64,000 nucleotides of DNA from an uncultured Nanoarchaeota archaeon (GTDB lineage Archaea; Nanobdellota; Nanobdellia; Pacearchaeales; GW2011-AR1), in the NCBI GenBank assembly GCA_963779925.1, contig CAVZZS010000010.1, positions 612 through 64,611 of the forward strand, read 5' to 3'. Numbering within the stretch: the first letter of the stretch is position 1; the number at the start of each line of letters is the position of its first letter. Of this stretch, positions 113-43,793 are shown piece after piece. The position numbers and the translations under genes were made by a program. Below the pieces are notes generated by a model. That model was not told the DNA's origin. It was given only the letters and a program-made list of their open reading frames with translations, and ran no database searches.

Positions 113-421
113 CTAATTTAAATAGCTGGAACATCCAGATACAAGATTATTATTAAAGTTAGTTTCTGAAAAAAGATATTCCATATCTAAAACATCCAGG
201 ACATCTTCAATACCTTCAAGATTATGCTGTAGCTTTTTTAATACAATCTCTACATCCATGTTGTCAGAGTTCAAAAAATATTTATCCAACTCTCCAGCCT
301 CTTGTTTTTTTATCTTAGTTATATTGTCCAAGAAAGAGAAAATATCACCCAAATTGTCTAAGTCCTTATTGGAATAGTTCAGATCTCTTAGAGAAAATAT
401 GCCAGTCTGCAACTCTTTCAA
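113..421 (-). CDS. PhoU-like C-terminal fragment, probably part of one broken 113..1034 AbrB-PhoU regulator gene
   Basis: 102 aa ORF. DLDNLGDIF resembles the PhoU DLERIGD motif. It lies on the same strand directly downstream of the AbrB-domain ORF. It starts at TTG only. Confidence 0.4.
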   Translation of the reverse strand: MKELQTGIFSLRDLNYSNKDLDNLGDIFSFLDNITKIKKQEAGELDKYFLNSDNMDVEIVLKKLQHNLEGIEDVLDVLDMEYLFSETNFNNNLVSGCSSYLN

Positions 422-2868: not shown

Positions 2869-3627
2869 TTAGAAAGGTATCAAGTCCAAAGGCTGTTCAG
2901 TTTCTCCAAGCCATTGTGTCAGTCTTTTCAATTTCAGTTTGTCATCTGCAGAAATTATTTTATATTTCGCCTTGGGATGTCCGTTTCCTGAAAAAAGATA
3001 AGAGGACTCCTCCACTCCGCCCAAAAGGGGGAGCGATTCTTCTCTTTCTCTTGTAATCGCTTCAAGGACAGGAGTTCTTTCTTCAACAGTGGCCCTTAAT
3101 TGCTTATCGAATAAATCATAGTCCTCCGGATTGGATAACACATAAATGAAGCTGTTATTGGGAGCAGGAATAGTGATTCTTTCAAGATTATTCAAGTTTG
3201 GATAGATTTTGCTCAGCAAGTCTATTCTCTTTTTCCCTTCTTTTGTGGCAATTTCATAGTCTTTGTTGAATACGGCAAGGATATCCCTCCCATTGAGATT
3301 CTGCCATGCCTGGCATGTTCTTCTCTTCTCGTAATCCGTTTCTTCTATATGCAATGCATCTTCTTTCATGACTTCGGTAAGCTCCTCCAGAACCTTGTTG
3401 ACTTCTTCTTTTGTTCTCATGGTTCTTGAAACCGCAAATGCATAGAAAGCGAATTGGTGCGGGACAATGTACTGGTCTCCCCATCTGAATTTTATAGAAG
3501 CGAAAGGAATGTCCAAATCATTGGAAGTAACTTCATCGATTCGGTTTATCACATCATAATAATATGCTACTTTTATCGCTTTTGGATCTTTGAATTCTTG
3601 CTCGTCAAATAATCCGCCAAAGTTCAT
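2869..3627 (-). CDS. hypothetical protein
   Basis: 252 aa ORF with no recognisable motif. It lies immediately downstream of the nuclease ORF on the same strand. Confidence 0.5.
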   Translation of the reverse strand: MNFGGLFDEQEFKDPKAIKVAYYYDVINRIDEVTSNDLDIPFASIKFRWGDQYIVPHQFAFYAFAVSRTMRTKEEVNKVLEELTEVMKEDALHIEETDYEKRRTCQAWQNLNGRDILAVFNKDYEIATKEGKKRIDLLSKIYPNLNNLERITIPAPNNSFIYVLSNPEDYDLFDKQLRATVEERTPVLEAITREREESLPLLGGVEESSYLFSGNGHPKAKYKIISADDKLKLKRLTQWLGETEQPLDLIPF

Positions 3628-3665
3628 TTCTTCTCCAAAAATTTCAGCATAATCTTTCCATGTAG

Positions 3666-3929
3666 TTATAGCATAATGCAGCCCTGCTCTTCATTCAGAA
3701 CGCCTTTTTTTCCTTTTCCGGATTTTACTTCAATAGAAAGCCTTGGATTGAACCTGTTTTTTATCGAAATCAGATCTGGCCTTCGCCTTCCATTCGGATT
3801 TTTCATCATCATGAAAAGCCTTGAGACATAAAATTCAGAATCAGTGCCGAAAACCCCTGTCTTGTCGCTTCGTCCTTTTTTCATTAAAAAGTCTCTTTCG
3901 GAGGAGTTAAAAGCATATATGTAAAGCAA
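3666..3929 (-). CDS. PD-(D/E)xK nuclease, Hjc/restriction-endonuclease-like
   Basis: GTDSEFYVSRLF ... RRPDLIS ... LSIEVKSGKGKKGVLNEEQ follows the Hjc pattern (E, PD, ExK, Q). Confidence 0.55.
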   Translation of the reverse strand: MLYIYAFNSSERDFLMKKGRSDKTGVFGTDSEFYVSRLFMMMKNPNGRRRPDLISIKNRFNPRLSIEVKSGKGKKGVLNEEQGCIML

Positions 3930-8251: not shown

Positions 8252-8703
8252 GTTATCCCCCTTATCCTAAGAAAAAACGAAGCGGAATGTGGATTATAGT
8301 TTTATTGGTTGTAGTAGGGGTTATTATTTATGCAAACAGCAAGGGGATTATAAATCTCGGCTCTCTGAATTTTGGAAATTTCAGCATGTCAGGAAACCAG
8401 AGTGGCACAGCATGCATACAGAAAGTTAATTCATGCGGCAGCATCATAAACCAGAAATATGGATCTAATGTGAATGTGTTAAACAGCACAATAGCGCAAA
8501 ATGCCAACGATGCAAATCAGTTTTTGGCAACATGGAAAAGTTCTTCAGAATCGGCAAGTATTGCAACTTACAATGTTTCTTCATATCCCATCACTTTGGT
8601 AGCAACGAGATTTGACAATACAGATGGGACAAAAACGCCTTATGTATTTATCTGCAAATCTGATGGAAATCTGGAAGAGAAAACAAATTCAGGTCTCTGC
8701 TGA
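8248..8703 (+). CDS. single-pass membrane protein with an extracellular domain
   Basis: Short basic N-terminus, one TM (WIIVLLVVVGVIIYA), and a Cys-containing ectodomain of about 110 aa. Confidence 0.5.
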   Translation: MSYPPYPKKKRSGMWIIVLLVVVGVIIYANSKGIINLGSLNFGNFSMSGNQSGTACIQKVNSCGSIINQKYGSNVNVLNSTIAQNANDANQFLATWKSSSESASIATYNVSSYPITLVATRFDNTDGTKTPYVFICKSDGNLEEKTNSGLC

Positions 8704-9537
8704 TTTTTTTGAGGTTAAGCCATTCGCAATTTTTATCTTACTCTCTATTTTGAATAATTTTTGCCGTATCCTTTCGCCTGTAATTCCGTATTCCTCGCCA
8801 AGGCTTTCATTAGTTCGGGGATAAGGAAAGCCGTTCAATCCATATTTTTTGTATAATATTTCTTTTTCTTCTGGCGTTAAATTCGCTTTTTTCAGGCTCT
8901 TTTGCAAAAATTGTTGATCATGTTCACTGTTCTCGCGTGTTTCCTGCTGCTGTTGAGGTCGATTATCAACTGCACGGGCTCCCCGTTCTTCTTCTCCATC
9001 ATCATAAGTAGAATCTATAGAGATAGGATCTGAAAATTGAAGAAGTTCTTCTACACTATCAACAGGCAAAGAAGAAATTTCTGCCAATTGCTCTATTGTT
9101 GGTTTTCTGCCATGTCTCTTCACATAATTTTCAGATTCTGAATTTAATCTGTCTGATTTTATTGCTTGATTAACCGGCAATTTAATAGTTCTGCTCTTAG
9201 ATATTATCGCATTTAGAATGGATTGTCTAATCCACCAGATTGCATATGCTCTAAAGTTTCGATTCTCTTTATTGGGATCATAGCGATCTATGCATTTCAT
9301 CAGTCCAATTCGGCCTTCCTGAATCAGATCTCCAAATTCCAGACTTCGCCTGTGTTTAAGATATCCCGTATAGTGTCCGGCAATAGCAGTTACTAAAGGG
9401 AGGTGAGTTTCAATTAATTTATCTTTAAGAGATTTATCTCTTGTATCTAGATATTCTCTGAATAATTCGTCAAAGTCCCAGCTATTATTCCACATATCCT
9501 TGCCATCTATATATCTTAAAAAAATATCTTTTGCCAT
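8689..9537 (-). CDS. bacterial-type sigma-70 family RNA polymerase sigma factor
   Basis: Region 2: DLIQEGRIGLMKCIDRYDP and FRAYAIWWIRQSILNAI. Region 3.0: SRTIKLPVNQ. Region 4: LTPEEKEILYKKYGL and SLGEEYGITGERIRQ. Confidence 0.85.
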   Translation of the reverse strand: MAKDIFLRYIDGKDMWNNSWDFDELFREYLDTRDKSLKDKLIETHLPLVTAIAGHYTGYLKHRRSLEFGDLIQEGRIGLMKCIDRYDPNKENRNFRAYAIWWIRQSILNAIISKSRTIKLPVNQAIKSDRLNSESENYVKRHGRKPTIEQLAEISSLPVDSVEELLQFSDPISIDSTYDDGEEERGARAVDNRPQQQQETRENSEHDQQFLQKSLKKANLTPEEKEILYKKYGLNGFPYPRTNESLGEEYGITGERIRQKLFKIESKIKIANGLTSKKSAET

Positions 9538-9584: not shown

Positions 9585-10886
9585 TTACTTTTGCTTAACC
9601 GGACTCTTTATCTCCTTTTGCCCGCCCATATAAGGCTGAAGAACGGTTGGAATTTTTATGCTTCCGTCAGCCATCTGATTATTTTCCATCACCGCAATCA
9701 GCGCTCTTGGAGAGGCAAGAACAGTATTATTGAGAGTATGGGCAAAATATCTCTGGCCTTTTCCTTCTATTTTAATATTGAGCCTCCTTGCCTGAGCATC
9801 GGTGAGATTGCTGCAGCTCCCTACTTCGAAATATTTCTTCTGCCTTGGGGACCATGCTTCAACATCGCAGCTCTTTGCCTTTAAGTCCGCCAGATCACCC
9901 GAGCATATTTCCAAAACTCTTAATGGGACATTTAATTCTTTAAAGACTTCAACGGTATAATTTTTCATCTTGTCATATAATTTGTAAGAATCTTCAGGCT
10001 CGCAGATTACAATCATTTCCTGCTTCTCAAACTGATGCAGCCTGTAAAAGCCTTTTTCTTCAATGCCATGGGAGCCGACTTCCTTTCTGAAGCAAGGAGA
10101 ATAGCTTGTCAGTTTAAGGGGAAGCTCTTTTGAGAGAAGTGTTTTGTCAATGAATCTTCCTATCATGGAATGCTCTGATGTTCCGATAAGATAGAGATCT
10201 TCGCCTTCAATTTTGTACATCATGTTGTCCATTTCCTTGAAGCTCATGACTCCTTCAACGACTTTTCTTCTTATCATGAATGGAGGTATTACATAGGTGA
10301 ATCCCTGCTTTATCATGTAATCTCTTGCAAATGCCAGCATTGATGAATGGAGGCGTGCAAGATCTCCCAGCAGGTAATAGAACCCGTTTCCGGATGTTTC
10401 CCTTGCAGAGTCAAAATCAACGCCGTTTAATTTCTCCGCGAGTTCAGCATGATTCAATATTTCATATTTTGGAACAGGAGGATTTCCTTTTGGAATCCTT
10501 TCTATTTCAACATTTTCAGAATCGTCTTTTCCTATTGGCACGGATTCATGGATTATGTTAGGAATCTGCTTCAATAATTGGTCTCTCTTTTCTTCAAGGG
10601 TCTTTGTTTTTTTCTCGCTGTTCGAGATTTTATCCGGAAGGTCTTTTGCTTCTTTGATCAGTTCCTTTGCTTTTTTTTCATTCTTGGCCTTTTTTGCCTG
10701 GTTGATATTTTCAGAAATCTCATTCCTCTGCTTTCTCAGCTTGTCGCCATTCTGCTTTTCCTTCCTCCACTTGTTGTCTAGTTCAAGAACTTGGTCGACA
10801 ACAGGCAGCTTGTCATGCTGGAACTTTTTCTTGATATTTGCCTTGACAATCTCCGGATTTTCCCTCAGAAGCTTGATGTCAATCAT
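9585..10886 (-). CDS. serS: seryl-tRNA synthetase
   Basis: N-terminal coiled-coil arm and class II core (FYRLHQFEKQEM, TSEHSMIGRF, GSCSNLTDAQARRL). Confidence 0.95.
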   Translation of the reverse strand: MIDIKLLRENPEIVKANIKKKFQHDKLPVVDQVLELDNKWRKEKQNGDKLRKQRNEISENINQAKKAKNEKKAKELIKEAKDLPDKISNSEKKTKTLEEKRDQLLKQIPNIIHESVPIGKDDSENVEIERIPKGNPPVPKYEILNHAELAEKLNGVDFDSARETSGNGFYYLLGDLARLHSSMLAFARDYMIKQGFTYVIPPFMIRRKVVEGVMSFKEMDNMMYKIEGEDLYLIGTSEHSMIGRFIDKTLLSKELPLKLTSYSPCFRKEVGSHGIEEKGFYRLHQFEKQEMIVICEPEDSYKLYDKMKNYTVEVFKELNVPLRVLEICSGDLADLKAKSCDVEAWSPRQKKYFEVGSCSNLTDAQARRLNIKIEGKGQRYFAHTLNNTVLASPRALIAVMENNQMADGSIKIPTVLQPYMGGQKEIKSPVKQK

Positions 10887-11024
10887 GGAAAATTTAATTG
10901 AATATTCTATTTAAATTTAATGAAATGGTTAAATTCTATTAGTTTTTTGTAATTATATCCAATCTATTTTCAAGAAAGATTTAATTCTAATAAAACTTAA
11001 AAAGCCAGTAATATTACGGCTTAT

Positions 11025-11786
11025 ATGAACCTTAAGGGGTTTTTTAAAATATTTCTAATGATTTCTCCATTAATTTTTTTAATTTTATACTTTTCCCTTA
11101 TTAATATTCATTCTTCCCAAAATAGCGATAATTCTTCCAAAAATGAATCACAAAATTTCACACTTGATAATTCTTATTTGACGCCTAATATAACTCAACC
11201 AAGTATTCAACAAACTCCAATCAAGTCTGCTGATCCAAGAGATAGCATGGATATTTGGTATTGGACATTACCAATTCATTATACTTTTTCAAAAGATAGC
11301 TCCTGTAGTGATGAAACAAAAATGCGAGTTCAAGATGCGATGAATATAATAAACAAGAATACAGATAATTATGTTTCTTTTCAAGAAGATTCTGATTTGA
11401 CTAATACAAGTGGGGATTATAAAGGAATTTATTTTTCTTGCATAGACCAATATAATGATACTCCAAGATCAGAAACTGAAGGAGATGCAAGTTTCTATTA
11501 TTACATTGGAACTAGAGAAATCTCTTCTGGTTCTATAGAATTATACAAACCAAATAGGGCTCAATACGAGTACTGCATGGGTTATCCTGATGTGGAAATA
11601 CATGAAATATTACATACAATGGGATTAGATCATATAACAGGTAGAGCAAGTATTATGAATTCAATTGCTCAAGAGGGATGTTTTAATTTAGACAAAGAGA
11701 TTTCAGATTGTTTAGAGTATATATATTCAAAAGGGCAACAAAATTATTCTTGCCAAGGAATTCCATTTCAGAGTGAAAGTCAATAA
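11025..11786 (+). CDS. secreted metzincin-type zinc metalloprotease
   Basis: Signal/TM N-terminus. HEILHTMGLDH matches HExxHxxGxxH, followed by SIMN (Met-turn). Confidence 0.8.
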   Translation: MNLKGFFKIFLMISPLIFLILYFSLINIHSSQNSDNSSKNESQNFTLDNSYLTPNITQPSIQQTPIKSADPRDSMDIWYWTLPIHYTFSKDSSCSDETKMRVQDAMNIINKNTDNYVSFQEDSDLTNTSGDYKGIYFSCIDQYNDTPRSETEGDASFYYYIGTREISSGSIELYKPNRAQYEYCMGYPDVEIHEILHTMGLDHITGRASIMNSIAQEGCFNLDKEISDCLEYIYSKGQQNYSCQGIPFQSESQ

Positions 11787-11799
11787 AAAGATAAATTTA

Positions 11800-12063
11800 T
11801 TATTCTGATTTCATCGAATTAATCAGAATTACCGCGCCAAGAGCGACAACAAATAATGCTACTATCCCCGTAATTATCCCACCAGACTGCAAGGTTCCTA
11901 TGACCCCCGCAGTGATTGAACCGGTATTGCAGGTAATAGTCTGATTCAAGCTGCAAGCCTTTATTCCGCCATCTGAAGAGCCTTTTACAACGCTGAAAAT
12001 GCCTAATATGCCTGCAAGTATAAGTGCCAATGACATTGCAATCATAAAACCTTTATTCTTCAT
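11800..12063 (-). CDS. small membrane protein carrying the shared C-terminal anchor module
   Basis: 87 aa with an N-terminal TM. The tail ITAGVIGTLQSGGIITGIVALFVVALGAVIL aligns with the tails of the two upstream genes. Confidence 0.5.
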   Translation of the reverse strand: MKNKGFMIAMSLALILAGILGIFSVVKGSSDGGIKACSLNQTITCNTGSITAGVIGTLQSGGIITGIVALFVVALGAVILINSMKSE

Positions 12064-12097
12064 TAATAGAAATATGGGAAGATTTATTTAAATCTTT

Positions 12098-12685
12098 TTA
12101 TTTTTCTTCAACTACAGGAAAATTCTTCTTGTATTTCTTTCTTGCTCTGACGATTATAATAGCAATCACAAGCACAACTGCGAATGCAACTATTCCGATT
12201 ATTCCGCCCGCAGAACTCAATGGGCTGGTAACTCCGCCTGTCAAGGGCGCTGAACTTGTAAATGGATTGCTTGTATTTGACAAAATAGTATCATTTGTCA
12301 TAACATTAGGAGAAAATAGGCTACCATTGGAAGAATTCTGGATTTCATTTGCAGGGAGAACATTCACAGTCCTGTTTGCTTTTGCAATATTTCCTGAAGA
12401 GTCTGTAGAAGTGTATAAGACATAATAAGTTCCAAGAGCGCTAGTATCCACAGCATTTACAGTCAGCATATGGACAGTTATATTACCATCACGATTATCT
12501 ATAGCATTTGCACCAGCATCAATATACTGGCTTCCCAAAGCTATGTTGACAATAGAATTACCATTTAAAGTTATTACTGGGGGAATAGTGTCAGGAGAAT
12601 ATGAACTCGCATTAATTCCTGCGGAAATCATAATGATAGATAATAAGAAAACAGATGATATAAACAATGCAGCTCTTTTATTCAT
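12098..12685 (-). CDS. surface protein with an Ig-like (DUF5011-type) domain and C-terminal anchor
   Basis: PPVITLNGNSIVNIALGSQYIDAGANAIDNRDGNIT ... YYVLYTSTDSSGN matches the DUF5011 pattern. Tail APLTGG-x11-TM-RARKKYKK. Confidence 0.7.
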   Translation of the reverse strand: MNKRAALFISSVFLLSIIMISAGINASSYSPDTIPPVITLNGNSIVNIALGSQYIDAGANAIDNRDGNITVHMLTVNAVDTSALGTYYVLYTSTDSSGNIAKANRTVNVLPANEIQNSSNGSLFSPNVMTNDTILSNTSNPFTSSAPLTGGVTSPLSSAGGIIGIVAFAVVLVIAIIIVRARKKYKKNFPVVEEK

Positions 12686-12738
12686 AAAAAGATTATAGAA
12701 AATTGATATTTAAAGTTATTCGTTCTTAATTGTATATT

Positions 12739-14606
12739 TTAATTCAAATTCTTATTTTTGTTCTTCTTTCTTACTCTAATAATTATTATTGCCAAAACCA
12801 ATATAACAAATGCTATAATTCCGATGATTCCTGTTGGTGATGTTAAAGCACCAATTGCTGCACCTGTTATCGGAGCAGTTGTAGTCGTTCCATTCACAGG
12901 AGTCTGAGTAGATGTAGTGTTTGCTATAGGAGAAGATATGTTAGTTATTGTTGTGTTTGTGTTAGTTGTATTAGCATTACTTGTAGGAGGGACATAACTT
13001 GCTCCTCCGCCTCCACCGCCTGCACTTGTACTTGTTCCGGAAATAGTTGAAGCAGGAACAGTTGGAAGATAAGTCATGAATTCAGTAAAATGCATTGTAC
13101 TAATTATCGTATCTGTTCCATTATCATAATAACAAATTCCAGATGTTTTAGCGCAAGTTTCCAAATCTGTTGTTGTATTTGCAGATATTTGTGTAAAAGT
13201 TAATCCCCCATCATTTGAATATGCTATATGCTTTCCTGTTACTCCTGGAATGGTTATATTTACCGGTTGACTGAAATTTAAATTATTTCCACCAACATCA
13301 ATAATTTCACCAAGTCCATTAACAAATCCATTAGGATAATAATCTCCAGGAACATTTGAAGTAGCTGCTGGTGCTCCAACATTTAATACTTGTGGAGCAT
13401 TTAATGTTCCATCCCATGTAGAATTTCCTGTAATATTTGTTCCAGAAGGAATTACAACTTGAATATTATTTAAATCATTTGAGGTTAAAATTATATTTGC
13501 TGGAACTGTAACATTTAATCTTCCTGAGTCATTTCCAGTCATAAAAGATGTCAAATTCAAGTAGGAAGTATCAGTGTCTGGAACAATATTTGCTTGAGAA
13601 AGGATAGTATATACTGCTTGTACTGATTCACTATTTACTTCTGAAACTTCATTCGTACCATCATTACCAGGAGCTGAATCATACCAGCCACCAATTATAC
13701 CCTTATAATTTTGATTACTTGTAAGCCATAATTGTCCATTTATTGCATCTTTAAAATCTCCAGCATCCATTAGTGCCATTATAGCATAAGCTGTATCTTG
13801 AACATATCCATTAGCATCACTCCAAGAACCATTCATCTGTTGAGATACAATTAAAGCATCTTTTGCGCTTGAATTTCCTGCTTCAACCAAACCAACTAAT
13901 CCAATAATGTATGTAGGATCAGATACATTTGTAATAATTAAAGGAGAGTTAGTATTAATAGTATTTATCAAGCTATTTGCCCAAGGAGAATTACCTGCCA
14001 TTTTAGCATCATCTATATAATTATACAAATCCCAGACAATTAATCCTTCATTGCTTGTTCCTCTATAAACTTTATTTGCTGTGAGCAAATCTGAACCAGA
14101 ACTATATGCATTCATAACTTTGTTCATCAAGAGGTTTGCTTCGGTTGTATAAGAATTAATCCTGCTAATATTCCCTAAATCATAAAGAAATTTTACATTA
14201 ACAGAATTAATGTTATTGCTAGTGGGATCACTATTGGGGTCAACCATTATCGTTGGAAGTTTATTAGTGTACATATTAAGCAGATAGTTTCCAGTCTTTT
14301 CTGCAGCCGTAAGATATGATATATTCCCAGTTATTTTATATGAATTTAACAAACTTTCAGCAGTTATTCCAGCTATATTCATATAAGTTGTTGAAGTTGG
14401 ACTAGTTGCATTTGTAATAGTCCAATCCCATGAACCATTTGCATTTTGCAAATTGACTAATCTATTAGAAGCGTTTATAATTGCAGTTTTTGCATCGGTA
14501 TATTGGCTAGTATTCAGATTTGTTTGTGCACTAACAACTCCTAGAAAGCCGATAAGAATTAAAGCAAATAGAGAGAGAGAGTTAAAAGATTAAATCTTTT
14601 ATTCAT
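12739..14606 (-). CDS. large surface protein with alpha/alpha-toroid (prenyltransferase/terpene-cyclase-like) repeats; its ATG is out of frame because of a (CT)6 tract
   Basis: The track ORF 12739..14451 starts at TTG without a signal peptide. The same frame stays open up to the ATG at 14606. Removing one CT unit gives MNKRFNLLTLSLFALILIGFLGVVSAQT. Repeats of NGSW..D type. Tail APITGA-x11-TM-RVRKKNKNK. Confidence 0.65.
14570..14581 (-). repeat. (CT)6 dinucleotide tract ((AG)6 on the plus strand) inside signal-peptide codons
   Basis: Plus strand reads agagagagagag at 14570..14581, starting 25 nt downstream of the ATG at 14606 on the minus strand. Confidence 0.9.
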
Positions 14607-14643
14607 GAAAAATCTAAAAGAACAGCGCTTTTAAATCTTTTTA

Positions 14644-14940
14644 TCAATGTGTTGAATTAGATTCCAAGTCTCCTAATTCATAGCTTCTAAGAACTTCATG
14701 ATACCATTTTCCATTCTGGCTTACGGCCTGATACTCCGCAGTAACTTCTTTTCCATTGGAGACATATTTCACTTCTATCATAAATTGCCCTGTTAGTCTT
14801 ATGCTCGCCCATTCCATAGATTTCAGGTCTAGTTCCATTGATTCGGGAATGAATGGTTGCGGGACAGGAATCTTTGGTCCTGCAGACACGGAAGTCAGCA
14901 GTGTAGCTGAAAGAAGAAGAATCCTGGCTAAATTTTTCAT
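14644..14940 (-). CDS. small secreted protein
   Basis: 98 aa with Ala/Leu-type signal MKNLARILLLSATLLTSVSAGP, followed by a beta-rich mature part. Confidence 0.55.
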   Translation of the reverse strand: MKNLARILLLSATLLTSVSAGPKIPVPQPFIPESMELDLKSMEWASIRLTGQFMIEVKYVSNGKEVTAEYQAVSQNGKWYHEVLRSYELGDLESNSTH

Positions 14941-14990
14941 CCAGTATAGATTCAGAATTCGTTTAAAAACATTGTTGCAAACTCTGGAAT

Positions 14991-28485: not shown

Positions 28486-29295
28486 ATGAAAGTCTTTTCT
28501 CATTCCAGATTAAGCACTTTTGAGCAGTGCAATCTAAAATACAAATTCAGGTACATAGACAATATTATCCCTGAAATTGAAAAAACGATTGAAGCGCATC
28601 TTGGGAGCATCGTGCACCAGACTTTGGAATGGCTTTATTCGGAAGTGAAGGAAAAAAGGATTCCAACAATTGATGATATGATTGTTTATTTTTCAAAAAG
28701 TTGGATGGAAGAAAATAAAGAAACTTTGATGCAGAATAATAATGATGAGCAGAAGTATTTCAATAAAGGAGTAAAATATTTGCTCGATTATTACAATAGA
28801 TACAAGCCTTTTGAGGACAATACAATTTATGTTGAAAAGGAAATTTCAATAGATTTGGATGAAAAAGGCGAATTCAAAATAAGGGGTTTCATTGATCGGC
28901 TTGCATATAATCTTGCTACAAAAGAATATGAAATTCATGATTACAAAACTTCCAATACAATGCCGCAGGGAGATAAAATCGAAAAGGACAGGCAGCTGGC
29001 GCTTTATTCCATCGCGATAAAAGAGATGTTTGGGCAAGATAAAGAGGTAAGATTAATCTGGCATTATCTTTTCTTCAACAAAAGGATAGAATCGAAGAGG
29101 ACTGATGAACAGCTTCTCCAATTAAAAAAAGATACACTTGAGCTAATAAGGATAATAGAATCAACGACAGAATTTTCTCCTAACAAATCGCATTTATGCA
29201 ATTGGTGCGCATACAAGCCTATCTGTCCTGCATGGAATAATGTAAAAGAATACATGCCAAAATTTGAGAAGCAGAAAAAGCTTGGGGATTTTTAA
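28486..29295 (+). CDS. PD-(D/E)xK nuclease of the RecB/Cas4 type with a four-Cys cluster
   Basis: N-terminal Cys (EQCNLKYKF), FIDRL, EIHDYKT, QLALY, and C-terminal CNWCAYKPIC. Confidence 0.75.
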   Translation: MKVFSHSRLSTFEQCNLKYKFRYIDNIIPEIEKTIEAHLGSIVHQTLEWLYSEVKEKRIPTIDDMIVYFSKSWMEENKETLMQNNNDEQKYFNKGVKYLLDYYNRYKPFEDNTIYVEKEISIDLDEKGEFKIRGFIDRLAYNLATKEYEIHDYKTSNTMPQGDKIEKDRQLALYSIAIKEMFGQDKEVRLIWHYLFFNKRIESKRTDEQLLQLKKDTLELIRIIESTTEFSPNKSHLCNWCAYKPICPAWNNVKEYMPKFEKQKKLGDF

Positions 29296-31839
29296 TTTGC
29301 AACTTCCAATCCAAGTTCATGGACCTTAACCAAATCAGTCACAGTATCGCCTTCTTGAAGCTTTACAATTCTTACGCCTTGTGTCGCTCTTCCCATTACC
29401 CTGATATTCTGCAAGGTAGTTCGTATCACCATTCCTTTTGCAGTGGTTATAATGATATTGTCATTTCCGTTGATGGAAACAGTCGTAACTACCTCTCCAG
29501 TTTTGTCGGAGATTTTCAAATTGATTACTCCTTTTCCGCCTCTTGCGGTTTTTCTGTAATCTTCAACATTTGTTCTTTTTCCGTATCCATTATGTGTTAT
29601 TGTCAAGACTTCCTTTGTCCTTAATATTTCCAAACTGACTACTTCATCATTCTTTTCCATCCTTATTCCGGTAACGCCATAGCTTGCTCTTCCCATTGAA
29701 CGGACATCATTGCTGTTGAACCTGATTGCCTGTCCTTTCTTTGTCGCAAGCAGCACTTCTTCTCCGGATTTGATGATTTGGGCATCAATAAGCACATCAG
29801 AATTATCCAATGGAAGATTAATCGCCCTTATTCCTGAAGCTCTTGGCTTTGAGAAGTTGGACAAGGACATTTTCTTTACAAATCCTTTTCTTGTTACCAA
29901 AAATAAAGAATCGTTAAAATCACTCATTGCGATGATGTTGGTAATTTTCTCGTCCTTGACTTCAATCAGATTAATGAGTGCTTTGCCTTTGCTGTACCTG
30001 TCTGCTTCGGGGATTTCGTATGCTTTCAGGAATAAAACTCTGCCATTCGATGTGAAGAACATCAGATAATCATGAGTGGAGCAGCTTATTATCTGTTTGA
30101 CAAAATCACCTGTAGCCAAATTATTGCCTATGACCCCTTTTCCGCCTCTTCTCTGTTCTTTGTAGGTTCCGATGTCAATTCTCTTGCAGTATCCTTTTTC
30201 TGTAACAGTCACTATAACTTCTTTTTTCTGGACAAGATCCTTTTCGGCAATTTCGCCGATTCTCTTGACAACCTGGGTTTTTCTATCATCGCCATATTTT
30301 TCTTTAAGAGATTTTACGTCCTTGACAATTATCTTAAGAACCTCTTTAATATCCCCAAGGATTTTTTCATATTCCACAATTTTCAATTTCAGGGTTTCAT
30401 GCTCTTCTTTCAACTTATCCTGTTCAAGCGCAGTTAACTGCCTTAATCTTGTTTCAAGAATTGCCTCTGCCTGTCTTTTCGTGAAATTGAATTTCTTGAT
30501 TAAATTTTCAGCGGCTTCTTCTCTGGATTTCTTGATTATGCTTATAATTTCATCCAGATTTTTCAAAGCGACCAAAAGCCCTTCGACAATTTCGAGCCTT
30601 TCTTTTGCTTTCTTTAAATCATAGGCTGTTCTTTTTGTTATAATCTGTTTTCTGTAATTTACAAATTCTTCAAGTATGTGCTTCAAATTCAGGACTCTTG
30701 GCTGCGTTCCGACCAAAGCCAGGAAATTTGCGTTAAAAGAATCCTGCAATCGCGTATATTTGTAAAGGCTATTGCTGATATATTTTGAATTAACTCCTTT
30801 TTTAAGTTCAATGACAATTCTTATTTTTCCCTTGGAAGATTCATCCCTTAAATCAGATACTCCGATTAATTTCTTGTTCTGTATGAGATTAGCAATCTGT
30901 TCTACTAGCGTGGATTTGTTTAGCATATAGGGAATTTCCGTAATGACAATTTTCTCCTTGCCCTTTGATTCTTCGGTTGTTATTTTCCCGCGCAAAATTA
31001 ATCTGCCTTTTCCTGTTCTGTATAAATCTACAATGTCGCCGGAAAGACTTCCTCCGGTCGGGAAATCAGGTCCTGTAACAATCTGGCATAATTCTTCAAT
31101 AGTGATATTTTCATTCTTTACATATTCAACAATTGCATCGCAAATTTCAGTAAGATTATGCGGAGGGATATTTGTGGCCATGCCGACCGCTATTCCAGAT
31201 GCGCCATTGATCATTAAATTAGGAAGTTTGGATGGAAGCAATTCAGGCTCTTTTAAGGAATTGTCAAAATTAGGAATAAATTTAACGGTCTCCTTGTCAA
31301 TATCCTCGATCATTTCATTTGAAATCTGAGCCATTTTTGCTTCGGTGTAACGCATTGCAGCAGCGCGGATCTCCGTCAATGCTTCCAAAGTTACCCTGGC
31401 CAAAAACCAGAGGATAACGCAATGAGAATTTCTGGGCCATTCTTACTAATGCATCATAAACAGCCACATCGCCATGAGGATGATATTTACCAAGAACATC
31501 TCCGACAATTCTTGCGCATTTTTTAGTCTGCTTGTTGGATTGCAGCCCAAGTAAATTCATAGAATATAAAATTCTTCGCTGAACGGGTTTCAATCCATCT
31601 TCGACTGATGGCAAAGCTCTTGCAACAATAACCGACATGGCATAATCAAGGTAGGACTTTTTGACTTCTTCAGAAATTTCAGTATTGATTATGTTTTTGC
31701 TTCCGGAAAGTTTGCCTTGGGAATCCTTTTCTTCTTCGCCTTCATCTTCTTCAACAGATTCTTCATCTTCAAGGCTTTCTTCTATTTCTTCCTGTTCTTC
31801 ATCAGGATTCTCTTCTGTAAAATCTTCATCGTCTGCCAT
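29292..31839 (-). CDS. gyrA: DNA gyrase subunit A, split into two overlapping ORFs by a +1 frame disruption
   Basis: 174 aa ORF (31315..31839): [15 protein letters not shown] ... [10 protein letters not shown]. 703 aa ORF (29292..31403): [15 protein letters not shown] onward, with six beta-pinwheel repeats. Skipping one nt within 31358..31368 gives [12 protein letters not shown]. Confidence 0.9.
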
Positions 31840-39534: not shown

Positions 39535-40007
39535 TTATCTAGCAGAAGGCGCTTTATATGGTCTTCCTAATGCCTGATAAATCTCTTTTTCAGTTTTTCC
39601 TGCAACTTTTCTCCCGTTGGACTTTCTGAACAGCCCGTGATTTGTCAGCTTGAAGCCCTGTTTTTCCGCAATGATCCTCAATCCGATGTTGGCGCCTTTT
39701 TTGCCTGAGTATGCCAGGAGCGTGCACCCCACTCTTCCGGGATTGTAAAGAATAGCTGAAGATCGATTTCATCAATTCTGAAAAACATCTCCTTGTCTCC
39801 GCCCTGCAGAAATTTTCCTTTCTTGCTTAATTTTTCTTTTATCTTTTCTTTGCTGTTTTCATTTTTTGCGATCAGGACAATATCGATATCTCTAGGATTT
39901 GGTTTTCCTCTTCTTATGCTGCCTGCAATTTCAATTCTTCTGCAAAAAGGCCTTAATTCTTGAACAACTTTTCTTGCAAGGCTGAGAACTCTTTCACCCC
40001 TATTCAT
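39535..40007 (-). pseudogene. minimal Pol-beta/PolX-like nucleotidyltransferase with a -1 frame break at a G4 run
   Basis: Upstream ORF: IEIAGSIRRGKPNPRDIDIVL ... IPEEWG. Downstream ORF: (G)CTLLAYSGKKGANIGLRIIAEKQGFKLTNHGLF ... EKEIYQALGRPYKAPSAR. The break is at CCCC 39727..39730 on the plus strand. Confidence 0.65.
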
Positions 40008-40038
40008 GGAAACTGAAAGCACAAGAAACTTATAAATT

Positions 40039-41685
40039 TTATCTGAATTTTGCCCAATCGTAAATCGGGCTTTCAACAGCAGTTCTTACAGAAGAAACCG
40101 AACTAGAGACTGTTCCGTCACCATAAATATAATCTCCGGGGAAAACAGAATCAACTGCCGCCTGGGCTGTTGGAGCATTCAAGATATAGTAATCTGCATA
40201 ATTCCTCAAATTAAATTTGCCTTGCTGTGTTTCAATAACAACCACGGCATGGGCGATGAAAGGCCCCCTTAATCCGACAGCATAAACATTTTTGTAGTTA
40301 AATGCTCTAGACTCGATATAAGGCGATAAATTTCCGTTTATATCCCTGCAAACGCCATAGCCATAAATTTCATATTCTTCTTGCGCTGAAAAAGTCCCGT
40401 CATGGTCTTTCTGTGATATGCAAGAAATTAATCTGGATAAATCCTGTTCCGAATGTATTTTTGAGATGGCCTCTTCTAATGTATCCCCAAATTGTGCATG
40501 AAGGGCGGCTAAATCAGGTGAATCGGGATAGTGAAGATAAGGGGGATTGGCGTTTACTGTGGAATTATGAAAATTATTTCTCAATCTGCTTTCCCTATTC
40601 ATGCTTGTATCTAATTGTGTCGAGTATTGAATTCCGAAAACATTGTTCTGTGAATTATAATAAAATTCAAGATTCCCGCCATTAAATTTCTCGCCTATTC
40701 CTGCAACGACGGTAAACTGGTCTGGTGCTAAAAAATCCATGAGCTCCGATGCTTTTCCTTTCAAATAAAAGCCATTCTTGAAAAGGGCAAATGCGCTAAC
40801 GTCAAATTGCAGTTCATTTCTGGTGGGCGCAATAAATTCATCTATGCTATAATTTGGTTTTGTAATCAGGCTTATATCGCATTCCAGACTGGCCTTTCTG
40901 CTTTCATCATGAAGACTTGCTCCAATCATGTTCGTTAAATTGAATGGCGAGGGATTATAGAACTGCCCGTCAAAAGTCCCCATATAGCTCAAATCAAAAT
41001 ATTTTGTTCCAAGCTCTAAACCGCCCTTGACATTGAGGTGATCAAAGGGATATGCCATGCTGCCAGAATCATATTCTGAAGTGCCGATTAAATTTATGAA
41101 ATCTTGAGTTTCCTGAGGATCAGCATAGTATTTGCTTCCTATAACAGAAAGCCAAGGGAAGAAGCTAAAGGATTTGAAATCAAATTTTTCTCCTAAATCA
41201 GCATTCCATCCTATTGCATAAAGTGTAAGGGGAGTTTCAAACTTTCCATAGCCAAGCGCAGAAAAGTCGACGCTCGTATTTGGCATATTAATTTTGGCGC
41301 CAGTCATGGAAAAATCAAGCCAGTCAAAAGGCCTTAAGCCCGCCTGCACTTTCATTATATCTGAGTCTTGAAGCAGGGTTTCAGTTGATAAATCCCCATA
41401 TGAAAATCCGGCATAAAAATTCTTGTTTCCAATAACTCCATCAGCATTATTTATTCTTGGAGAATCAGAATATTGCATATCAGAGGCAAAATCAAGTTCC
41501 CAGTCATTCCCTAAGGATAAACTTGAATCAAAGCTGAAGCTTTTATTGTCAATACTCCCTTTAAGATCAATTATCGAACTACTATCTTCTTTTATGATGG
41601 TGCTCTCTAGTGGATTCCCAAATAAAGCTCCTGCTGCCAAGCTCAAAGCCAATGCTATTGGTGCAACTTTCTTCATAATTTTCAT
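40039..41685 (-). CDS. secreted two-domain protein: beta-barrel-like N-terminal region plus a transglutaminase-like Cys/His C-terminal domain
   Basis: Signal MKIMKKVAPIALALSLAAGALFG. About 350 aa of alternating aromatic/polar strands. C-terminus YGYGVCRD ... FIAHAVVVIE ... NYADYY (Cys-His-Asp candidates). Confidence 0.5.
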   Translation of the reverse strand: MKIMKKVAPIALALSLAAGALFGNPLESTIIKEDSSSIIDLKGSIDNKSFSFDSSLSLGNDWELDFASDMQYSDSPRINNADGVIGNKNFYAGFSYGDLSTETLLQDSDIMKVQAGLRPFDWLDFSMTGAKINMPNTSVDFSALGYGKFETPLTLYAIGWNADLGEKFDFKSFSFFPWLSVIGSKYYADPQETQDFINLIGTSEYDSGSMAYPFDHLNVKGGLELGTKYFDLSYMGTFDGQFYNPSPFNLTNMIGASLHDESRKASLECDISLITKPNYSIDEFIAPTRNELQFDVSAFALFKNGFYLKGKASELMDFLAPDQFTVVAGIGEKFNGGNLEFYYNSQNNVFGIQYSTQLDTSMNRESRLRNNFHNSTVNANPPYLHYPDSPDLAALHAQFGDTLEEAISKIHSEQDLSRLISCISQKDHDGTFSAQEEYEIYGYGVCRDINGNLSPYIESRAFNYKNVYAVGLRGPFIAHAVVVIETQQGKFNLRNYADYYILNAPTAQAAVDSVFPGDYIYGDGTVSSSVSSVRTAVESPIYDWAKFR

Positions 41686-42992: not shown

Positions 42993-43793
42993 ATGGCTGA
43001 AGAAAAAATAGAGAAGCACGAACATGAACATCACGAAGCTAAGACAGTTACCTTAAAGAAAAGCACTTTATGGGGAGTTGGTGTCTTTGTCCTTTTGGCT
43101 TTACTTGTAGCAAGCGTATTCACAGGAGGATTTGGAATAATGAAAACTACGGGCAATGCGGCAAACACAGGCAATACAGCTAATACCGGGTACATACAAT
43201 CCTAGCGTATTCATTATTTAACTCGGATTTGTATCCTTCATTGGGTCCAAGCAATGCAAAGGCTACTGTGATTGAAGTTGCTGATTTCCAATGCCCATAT
43301 TGTGCATTAGCTTCAGGATTGCCTAATTGGACATCTCCAATACCAGGGAACCCAATATGCTATTTAATAGGTGCTGCAGCAAATGCTGAACAATTGGCTC
43401 AGCAAGGAAGATACAATTTATATTTGTACCATGGAGCTTCTTAGATGCAAGCACAAGAGTTCAGGCTATATGCAGCAGAAGCAGCATATTGTGCAGCGGA
43501 CCAAGGACAAATTTTGGCGAAATGCATGATGCAATATATAAAGCAAGTGATGGAACAAGTGAAGATACTGGAAAATATTCAAAAGCAAATTTAACAATAA
43601 TTGCACAAGGTATTTCTGGATTAGATATGACGAAGTTTAATACTTGCTTGAGTACGGATGCGGATTTGGCAAGAGTTCAACAAGTACGACAGATGTACAA
43701 AGTTCAGGAGTAACTGGAACACCTGCAATGTTTGTAAATGGGCAGTTCATTAATCCTACATTAAGTGCTGTACAAGCTGCAATTGGTCAGTAA
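42993..43793 (+). pseudogene. membrane-anchored DsbA-like thiol:disulfide oxidoreductase, broken into at least five reading-frame segments
   Basis: Segments read in three frames: TM anchor; ATVIEVADFQCPYC; GKIQFIFVPWSFLD; YAAEAAYCAADQGQ; FGEMHDAIYKASDG ... LDMTKFNTCLS; SGVTGTPAMFVNGQ. Confidence 0.7.

Follow-up and report, generated by a model that had tools for sequence, protein, structure and literature searches.

The locus

The window considered here is a stretch of 64,000 nucleotides (positions 612 to 64,611 of the forward strand of contig CAVZZS010000010.1, assembly GCA_963779925.1) from an uncultured Nanoarchaeota archaeon; positions are counted from its first letter. It has a G+C content of 36.5% and encodes aIF5B, aIF2-gamma, Kae1, the ribosomal proteins S28e and L7Ae, and gyrase. 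Our subject is a surface-protein gene on the minus strand, in which the codons for the signal peptide carry a run of six CT dinucleotides, (CT)6, one unit more than the reading frame allows. The gene is OFF as sequenced: translation from the only plausible start, the ATG at 14606, ends after 15 codons. We consider whether the locus is a candidate phase switch. The features of the leader region are:

14628 to 14635, minus strand: putative TATA-like box, TTTAAAAG, 22-29 nt upstream of the ATG

14604 to 14606, minus strand: ATG, the true start codon; the residues MNKRF are common to the orthologue P0002, whose gene starts at the aligned ATG

14570 to 14581, minus strand: (CT)6 microsatellite within the codons for the hydrophobic signal-peptide core, with a surplus of one unit for the frame (2 nt in the alignment)

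14559 to 14561, minus strand: TAA at which, with (CT)6, the ATG frame closes after 15 codons

14523 to 14606, minus strand: signal-peptide coding region, frameshifted; cleavage predicted after VSA (GCA 14526..14528) in the repaired translation

12739 to 14589, minus strand: long open frame, the gene body, listed as a 570-aa open reading frame (ORF) from TTG 14451

The frame opened by the ATG (14606..14604) reads MNKRFNLLTLSLYLL and is closed by the TAA at 14561..14559, so the short product given in the initial annotation, which was made from the letters alone, and its coordinates hold. The repeat, CTCTCTCTCTCT (14581..14570, 12 nt), occupies codons 9-13. The same annotation described the frame of the 570-aa ORF as open back to the ATG and offset by one nucleotide. 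The offset is correct but the long frame is open only from 14589, five codons past the ATG, down to 12739, and its earliest start codon is TTG 14451, which gives the 570-aa protein P0001. Removal of one CT unit gives a 621-aa product that begins MNKRFNLLTLSLFALILIGFLGVVSAQT and has a signal peptide, and addition of two units gives a product of 623 aa; the computed products thus agree with the earlier proposal that either change restores the frame. The repaired leader combines two basic residues, a 16-residue core with a mean Kyte-Doolittle hydropathy of 2.54, and the sequence VSA/QT. The VSA/Q cleavage site, already recognised in the annotation, is corroborated by the orthologues P0002 and P0003, which share the leader and its GxVSAQT end. 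A protein started at TTG 14451 would carry no export signal, as had been pointed out, and would also miss the conserved ADRLVxLQ helix at the start of the domain.

No other dinucleotide in the window is repeated five or more times in a row. Under a first-order Markov model of dinucleotide composition, some 0.005 runs this long are expected for each register and strand, and approximately 0.02 CT/AG runs in 64 kb. CTC is the rarest leucine codon in the genome (6%) and the probability of L-S-L being written CTC-TCT-CTC is approximately 1e-3, so the coding of these residues or codon usage does not explain the repeat. Past the tract the frame is free of further stops and frameshifts: its 570 codons are open, and it retains the family motifs. 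Upstream, TTTAAA is kept at an equal distance before the ATG of the orthologue in loci L001-L004, and a similar element precedes the neighbouring gene at 12685. From its sequence and placing the TATA-like box is probably an archaeal promoter, with a short 5′ leader or none.

Comparison with orthologues

Only three close homologues of P0001 were found in a set of 5.8 billion proteins. One of these, P0002 (605 aa), is intact and 51% identical to P0001 across the full length; the identity of a second orthologue is 46%. The P0002 locus is syntenic on four contigs, with S10, diadenylate cyclase, ThyA, DHFR and the downstream small immunoglobulin (Ig)-like surface genes, and the nearest genome match of the gene is a Candidatus Woesearchaeota metagenome-assembled genome (MAG). 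Together with the gene content of the window, this match identifies a DPANN-type archaeon. The leaders of the orthologues are homologous, MNKRF...GxVSAQT, with the GxVSAQT end invariant in three orthologues. Aligned at the DNA level with L001-L004 the window is exactly 2 nt longer, and the surplus is located in the tract. In the (CT)5 state the leader would be 28 aa, the same length as that of P0002.

The protein and its family

The gene and the two genes downstream of it, at 12098..12685 and 11800..12063 on the minus strand, are a small surface-protein cluster. Structural assignments for P0001 were taken from an AlphaFold2 (AF2) model with a mean predicted local distance difference test score (pLDDT) of 80. 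The parts are:

13588 to 14522, minus strand: extracellular alpha/alpha-toroid domain with the signature ADRLVxLQNxNGSWDW; 12 helices in the AF2 model (residues 1-288), pLDDT mostly >90

13066 to 13566, minus strand: beta-sandwich domain with a conserved CYYDNGTDxIIWTxHFTxFxTY end (AF2 model residues 296-462)

12844 to 13002, minus strand: disordered stalk rich in Thr, Asn and Gly (residues 484-536, pLDDT <50)

12757 to 12837, minus strand: C-terminal transmembrane helix and basic tail (RVRKKNKNKNLN), the membrane anchor (model helix 539-565, mean hydropathy 2.50)

11800 to 12685, minus strand: two small surface proteins, one of 195 aa with an Ig-like domain and one of 87 aa, both with signal peptides and the same anchor motif

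The predicted signal peptide and transmembrane anchor (AF2 model, hydropathy) fit the original description of an extracellular, C-terminally anchored protein. In Foldseek comparisons the fold only weakly resembles GH76 mannanases, terpene synthases and the thioester-containing domain of complement and alpha2-macroglobulin; target-normalised TM-scores are approximately 0.3-0.5 against single-domain targets. No Pfam or NCBIfam model matches P0001 or its anchor motif.

That motif is ITGGxIGAL..GIxGIxAF with a transmembrane segment and KKK tail behind it, and P0001 shares it with the products of the next two genes and with the orthologues. Put more broadly, three adjacent secreted proteins (window 11800..12837, minus strand) and their orthologues end in (I/L)TGG..(S/T)..GGIIGIVAF, then a transmembrane segment and a Lys-rich tail. 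Judged by its recurrence, the shared motif may be a sorting or anchoring signal.

A full HMMER scan (E<=1e-3) identified 779 relatives, an unnamed family defined by the ADRLVxLQNxNGSWDW signature. It includes MFA6329859.1 (an 'immunoglobulin-like domain-containing protein' of a Micrarchaeia archaeon), a protein from a Woesearchaeota MAG, and Parcubacteria proteins. Full-length members are arranged as a signal peptide, approximately 25 residues, the toroid, variable middle modules, the conserved beta-sandwich and the anchor, and the window protein is one of them. In nearly all full-length relatives the domain that starts at residue 1 of P0001 begins at residue 40-65, after a signal peptide. In the family layout a signal peptide and a linker, each of about 25 aa, precede the toroid, and the repaired leader fits this.

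The two small surface genes are also a place of variation between strains. When L001:10795..11820 is compared with L003 they carry 79 and 117 single-nucleotide polymorphisms per kb, against 0-5 per kb elsewhere, in strains that are 98.9% identical, so the surface cluster is under diversifying pressure. On the other side of the gene, the interval between a 105-aa gene and the orthologue (L001:5172..8881) is occupied by a 1,073-aa Ice_binding/Big-domain protein and by a 161-aa gene. The counterpart interval of the window (14644..14990) has one 98-aa secreted protein only, so this is a surface-gene region of variable content. Elsewhere in this archaeal sequence, the minus strand of the window codes at 8689..9537 for a sigma-70-like protein (Pfam regions 2 and 4), which is kept in the relative L001.

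Repeats and frameshifts in other leaders

Is a repeat in this position peculiar to the window? A (CT)7 run lies in frame at L012:3031..3044 (JGI Ga0172381_10000964), where it encodes the LSLSL of a signal-peptide core in a 2,245-aa homologue; a member of the same identical-sequence cluster is named Candidatus Micrarchaeia archaeon by NCBI (MFA6329859.1). This is the only dinucleotide run of at least five units in 108 kb of loci fetched regardless of leader state. The probability that any of the four repeats in those 108 kb would fall in a leader is approximately 0.04. In P0073 (L019:367..491, ENA ERZ27247837 k141_1592479) a G9 tract at 391..399, codons 9-11, lies between the ATG at 367 and the rest of the signal peptide. 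What follows the tract is the remainder of a good signal peptide, but in a different frame from the ATG; this gene is therefore also OFF, and G8 or G11 would restore the frame.

In P0051 (L023:1856..2000, GCA_037975565.1, JBBCBH010007345.1) the ATG is again out of frame with the signal peptide. The shift is probably a G3 to G4 change at CCTGGGGTAT, and the gene also appears fragmented downstream. Among 85 representatives, all three of the members that lack a leader and retain the whole domain are leader frameshifts (the window, P0073 of L019 and P0051 of L023), P0073 and P0051 having been picked for looking truncated. Two further apparent truncations, P0036 and P0126, are only miscalled starts. 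Leader breakage in the family is not confined to repeats. A GTDB Woesearchaeota MAG (L006:9958) and a JGI contig of one strain (L010:2959) are identical over 6,877 nt save for one A (GCAATC versus GCATC) in the lipoprotein signal peptide of the homologue, and the JGI copy is frameshifted. The residues LSLSL do not in themselves reveal a CT repeat in the leaders of other family members: P0148 uses CTGAGCCTGAGCCTG, and L015 is without a repeat.

Phase switch or broken gene

Several properties are expected of a contingency locus. The window has a coding repeat at the 5′ end of the gene that is long enough for hypermutability, although at the short end of the 5-11 unit range of oipA in Helicobacter pylori. 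Gain or loss of units shifts the start in or out of frame with an otherwise intact gene. The product is a surface protein, and similar tracts, (CT)7 and G9, occur in the leaders of related genes. We put the probability that this is a repeat-driven ON/OFF (phase-variable) locus of the oipA type at about 0.5. The case rests on design and on recurrence; under recurrence we count, besides the (CT)7 and G9 tracts, the leader frameshifts of all three leaderless members, the one-base difference between L006 and L010, and the polymorphisms gathered in the small surface genes. As no second allele or length heterogeneity was found, 'candidate' is the right word.

A number of observations weigh against a switch, and the most direct concern the tract itself. 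The same (CT)6 is present in both assemblies compared, with no variation in tract length. The (CT)5 and (CT)8 products are not on record by exact look-up, and a DNA pattern with a variable gap across the tract had 0 matches in JGI metagenomes. Protein-guided scans of GTDB genomes, JGI metagenomes and IMG/VR returned relatives at no more than 51% identity, or none, and neither the 90%-identity protein cluster nor exact look-ups of P0001 and S10 produced another contig of the species. The Logan unitig path passes through the tract unbroken, hence a minor allele, if one exists, must be rare or have been popped from the graph. ON/OFF switching itself, which the initial annotation had suggested, therefore gains nothing from the databases or the two assemblies, where no second allele or length heterogeneity was found. 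The closest orthologues have no repeat at the site (GATTCCTGCTTTTCTT), so the tract is evolutionarily young, and six units is at the low end for fast switching. Both assemblies of the Micrarchaeia (CT)7 gene carry the same leader. The annotation also proposed a check for 5′ microsatellites in other surface genes and related genomes. It is answered in part by the (CT)7 and G9 leaders of homologues, but the 64-kb window has no other 5′ microsatellite or candidate contingency locus, and the closest orthologues have none at this site. Finally, the contig has non-repeat frame disruptions in gyrA, a PolX-like gene and a DsbA-like gene, so broken genes are not rare there, whatever the reason.

These facts can be read in another way, as a plain and recent pseudogene: a chance microsatellite, placed where the signal peptide tolerates it, slipped once, the surface protein is being lost from this lineage, and there is no selected or frequent switching. 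The single allele seen in two assemblies, with no ON allele on record, is what such a gene would give. So is a short tract that is missing from the orthologues and unaccompanied by other 5′ repeats in the window, on a contig with other broken genes. The breaks at non-repeat sites elsewhere in the family, at AA to A in L010 and at a G4 run with further fragmentation in L023, suggest moreover that the family is often dispensable. A recent slippage pseudogene fits most of the facts and is a serious rival, to which we assign a substantial minority share of the probability. A degraded pseudogene should have several independent lesions and have lost conserved motifs, whereas here there is a single lesion and the other 570 codons are untouched. 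The lesion falls exactly in the only long dinucleotide repeat of the window. A repeat of the same type at the same place in a distant homologue, with G9 in a third, is hard to obtain by chance. Selection or no selection, the mechanism that makes a frameshift in a repeat can also undo it.

Is the (CT)6 allele real? A sequencing or consensus artefact would mean that the true tract is (CT)5 and the gene intact, the extra unit having come from library amplification, base calling or assembly. As an exact match, the 570-aa product is on record in NCBI, ENA and Logan. The Logan contig ERR11571142_1304865 (L026, 4,998 nt), reached via the neighbouring gene P0160, matches window 9943..14940 at 100% identity, and the same (CT)6 lies well within it, at L026:360..371. 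Such agreement from an independent de Bruijn assembly makes an assembler-specific error unlikely, with the caveat that both assemblies may rest on the same reads. In addition 103 long homopolymers are read correctly inside intact ORFs of the assembly, which rules out homopolymer-type sequencing error as a general property of it.

What speaks for an artefact is the condition of conserved genes elsewhere on the contig, several of which have indels. The gyrA gene (29292..31839, minus strand) is split into ORFs of 174 aa and 703 aa by a 1-nt insertion at approximately 31365 (junction 31362..31368), GAT CCG [C] GCT GCT GCA ATG CGT TAC, directly before the catalytic-Tyr motif AAAMRYTE; the adjoining gyrB is intact. 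The gyrB-bearing Logan contig (L027) stops at window 31394, 29 nt short of the frameshift, so there is no independent confirmation of the gyrA lesion, which lies at an ambiguous site of the read graph. In the PolX-like gene (39535..40085, minus strand) the palm and thumb domains are in different frames, with the junction at approximately 39720..39730. The break, TGG GGT GCA CG CTC CTG (WGA|LLAYSG), is not at a repeat and represents either the loss of 1 nt or the gain of 2 nt. Neither the repaired GyrA nor the repaired PolX sequence has an exact match on record.

The third disrupted gene, DsbA/thioredoxin-like (43229..43793, plus strand), has approximately five frame changes within 500 nt and keeps its CPYC, QGKFWEMHD and GVTGTP motifs. 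They include two single-C insertions 12 nt apart, GGA[C]AAATTTTGG[C]GAAATGCAT, removal of which gives QGKFWEMHD. So many changes with motifs otherwise intact resemble local consensus trouble; the gene is either that or a very young pseudogene. A Viterbi frameshift finder based on codon usage recovered the gyrA and DsbA-like shifts and otherwise flagged mostly ordinary overlapping gene pairs, which Pfam assignments identify as separate genes. One candidate frameshift from the codon-usage model lies in 2869..3929 (minus strand), where at approximately 3680 an 87-aa ORF with a PD..EVK nuclease-like motif joins a 252-aa ORF via GGC|CTG, a C2 to C1 change. None of the gyrA, PolX-like and DsbA-like sites is a repeat, and they therefore indicate no repeat-specific mode of error. 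Our conclusion is that the reads carry (CT)6 as their dominant allele. It is very probably real, a systematic read-level error is unlikely, and an artefact of any kind is an improbable account of the locus.

Recoding, by which the (CT)6 allele would be expressed through a +2/-1 ribosome shift on CUC-UCU-CUC or RNA polymerase slippage with partial restoration of the frame, is very improbable: a two-base shift on a CU repeat would, as reasoned from the sequence, re-pair the P-site tRNA perfectly and lead to TLSL-LFALILIG..., but the conserved slippery heptamer and stimulatory structure of programmed ribosomal frameshifting are not seen (no X XXY YYZ heptamer; no downstream RNA structure, with a minimum free energy of -13.9 kcal/mol and z = -0.06 versus shuffles), the orthologues are in frame with neither shift nor repeat, and there is no unusual decoding elsewhere. 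Pairs of ORFs that abut in the same frame, considered as possible stop-codon reassignment or recoding, are separate compact genes (a NUDIX and a Zn-ribbon protein, and others).

Proposed mechanism

Returning to the phase switch, we regard the window allele as a genuine OFF allele produced by slipped-strand mispairing, and the locus as a credible candidate for what would be the first archaeal phase switch driven by a repeat. In the dominant genotype of the sample the tract has six units, one over the in-frame five, so that the frame from ATG 14606 stops and the protein is not made. The extra CT unit would be the signature of slipped-strand mispairing in replication. Further slippage could remove one unit or add two and so restore the frame. 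The locus would then turn a surface protein ON and OFF at random, in a heritable and reversible way, as oipA and the hop genes of H. pylori do, and this would plausibly be of use to a cell-attached symbiont under selection by host or virus. We infer a useful slippage rate, ON cells beside OFF cells, and selection of the switch. A broader proposition, that DPANN archaea use CT and poly-G leader tracts to switch alpha/alpha-toroid surface proteins within populations, is possible and is offered only tentatively.

Relation to known systems

Phase variation by repeat slippage is textbook bacterial bet-hedging, known mostly from pathogens. For DPANN archaea, which are cell-attached, contact with hosts and viruses probably takes place through the surface proteins. 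Surveys of such repeats take in archaea statistically only, with no individual archaeal switch demonstrated (PMC3315296, PMC2831843). A 2025 review names the archaeal distribution of phase variation as future work (PMC11868660) and we found no report in the literature of repeat-driven phase variation in archaea, nor one linking DPANN or Woesearchaeota with phase variation or frameshifting; the view that such switching is essentially undescribed in archaea, expressed at the outset, is thereby borne out. If the switch is true, Archaea would have their first described case of repeat-driven phase variation, and it would be in episymbionts with surface proteins that mediate contact with the host. 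It would extend the strategy to the third domain of life and to environmental symbionts, and would mark out an uncharacterised family of approximately 780 proteins as one of ecological importance. Novelty would lie in the lineage and in the protein family; the mechanism itself is a classical one.

Three kinds of known system can be compared with the window. The opa genes of Neisseria have CTCTT pentamer repeats in their signal-peptide codons; they form a many-copy family in a bacterial pathogen, and switching has been measured experimentally. As in the window, a pyrimidine-rich coding repeat lies in the hydrophobic leader of a surface protein and the number of repeats sets the frame, although the unit is a pentamer rather than a dinucleotide. 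The second kind is the 5′-proximal hypermutable tract known from surveys, where inactivation of the gene is reversible. The G9 tract of P0073 in L019 is of this kind, whereas that of the window is a dinucleotide.

The third is oipA (hopH) of H. pylori, which has 5-11 CT units in its signal-peptide codons and switches (PMC10564699). Length variation between strains and switching are documented in H. pylori, whereas one allele of the window locus is known. The H. pylori products are beta-barrel outer-membrane proteins from a different domain of life, unrelated to the alpha/alpha-toroid with transmembrane anchor described here. The likeness of the window to oipA and to hop/sab/bab lies in the CT unit, its position in the signal peptide, and the setting of the frame by unit number through slipped-strand mispairing, and the tract lengths of the window and oipA overlap, (CT)6 as against 5-11 CT.

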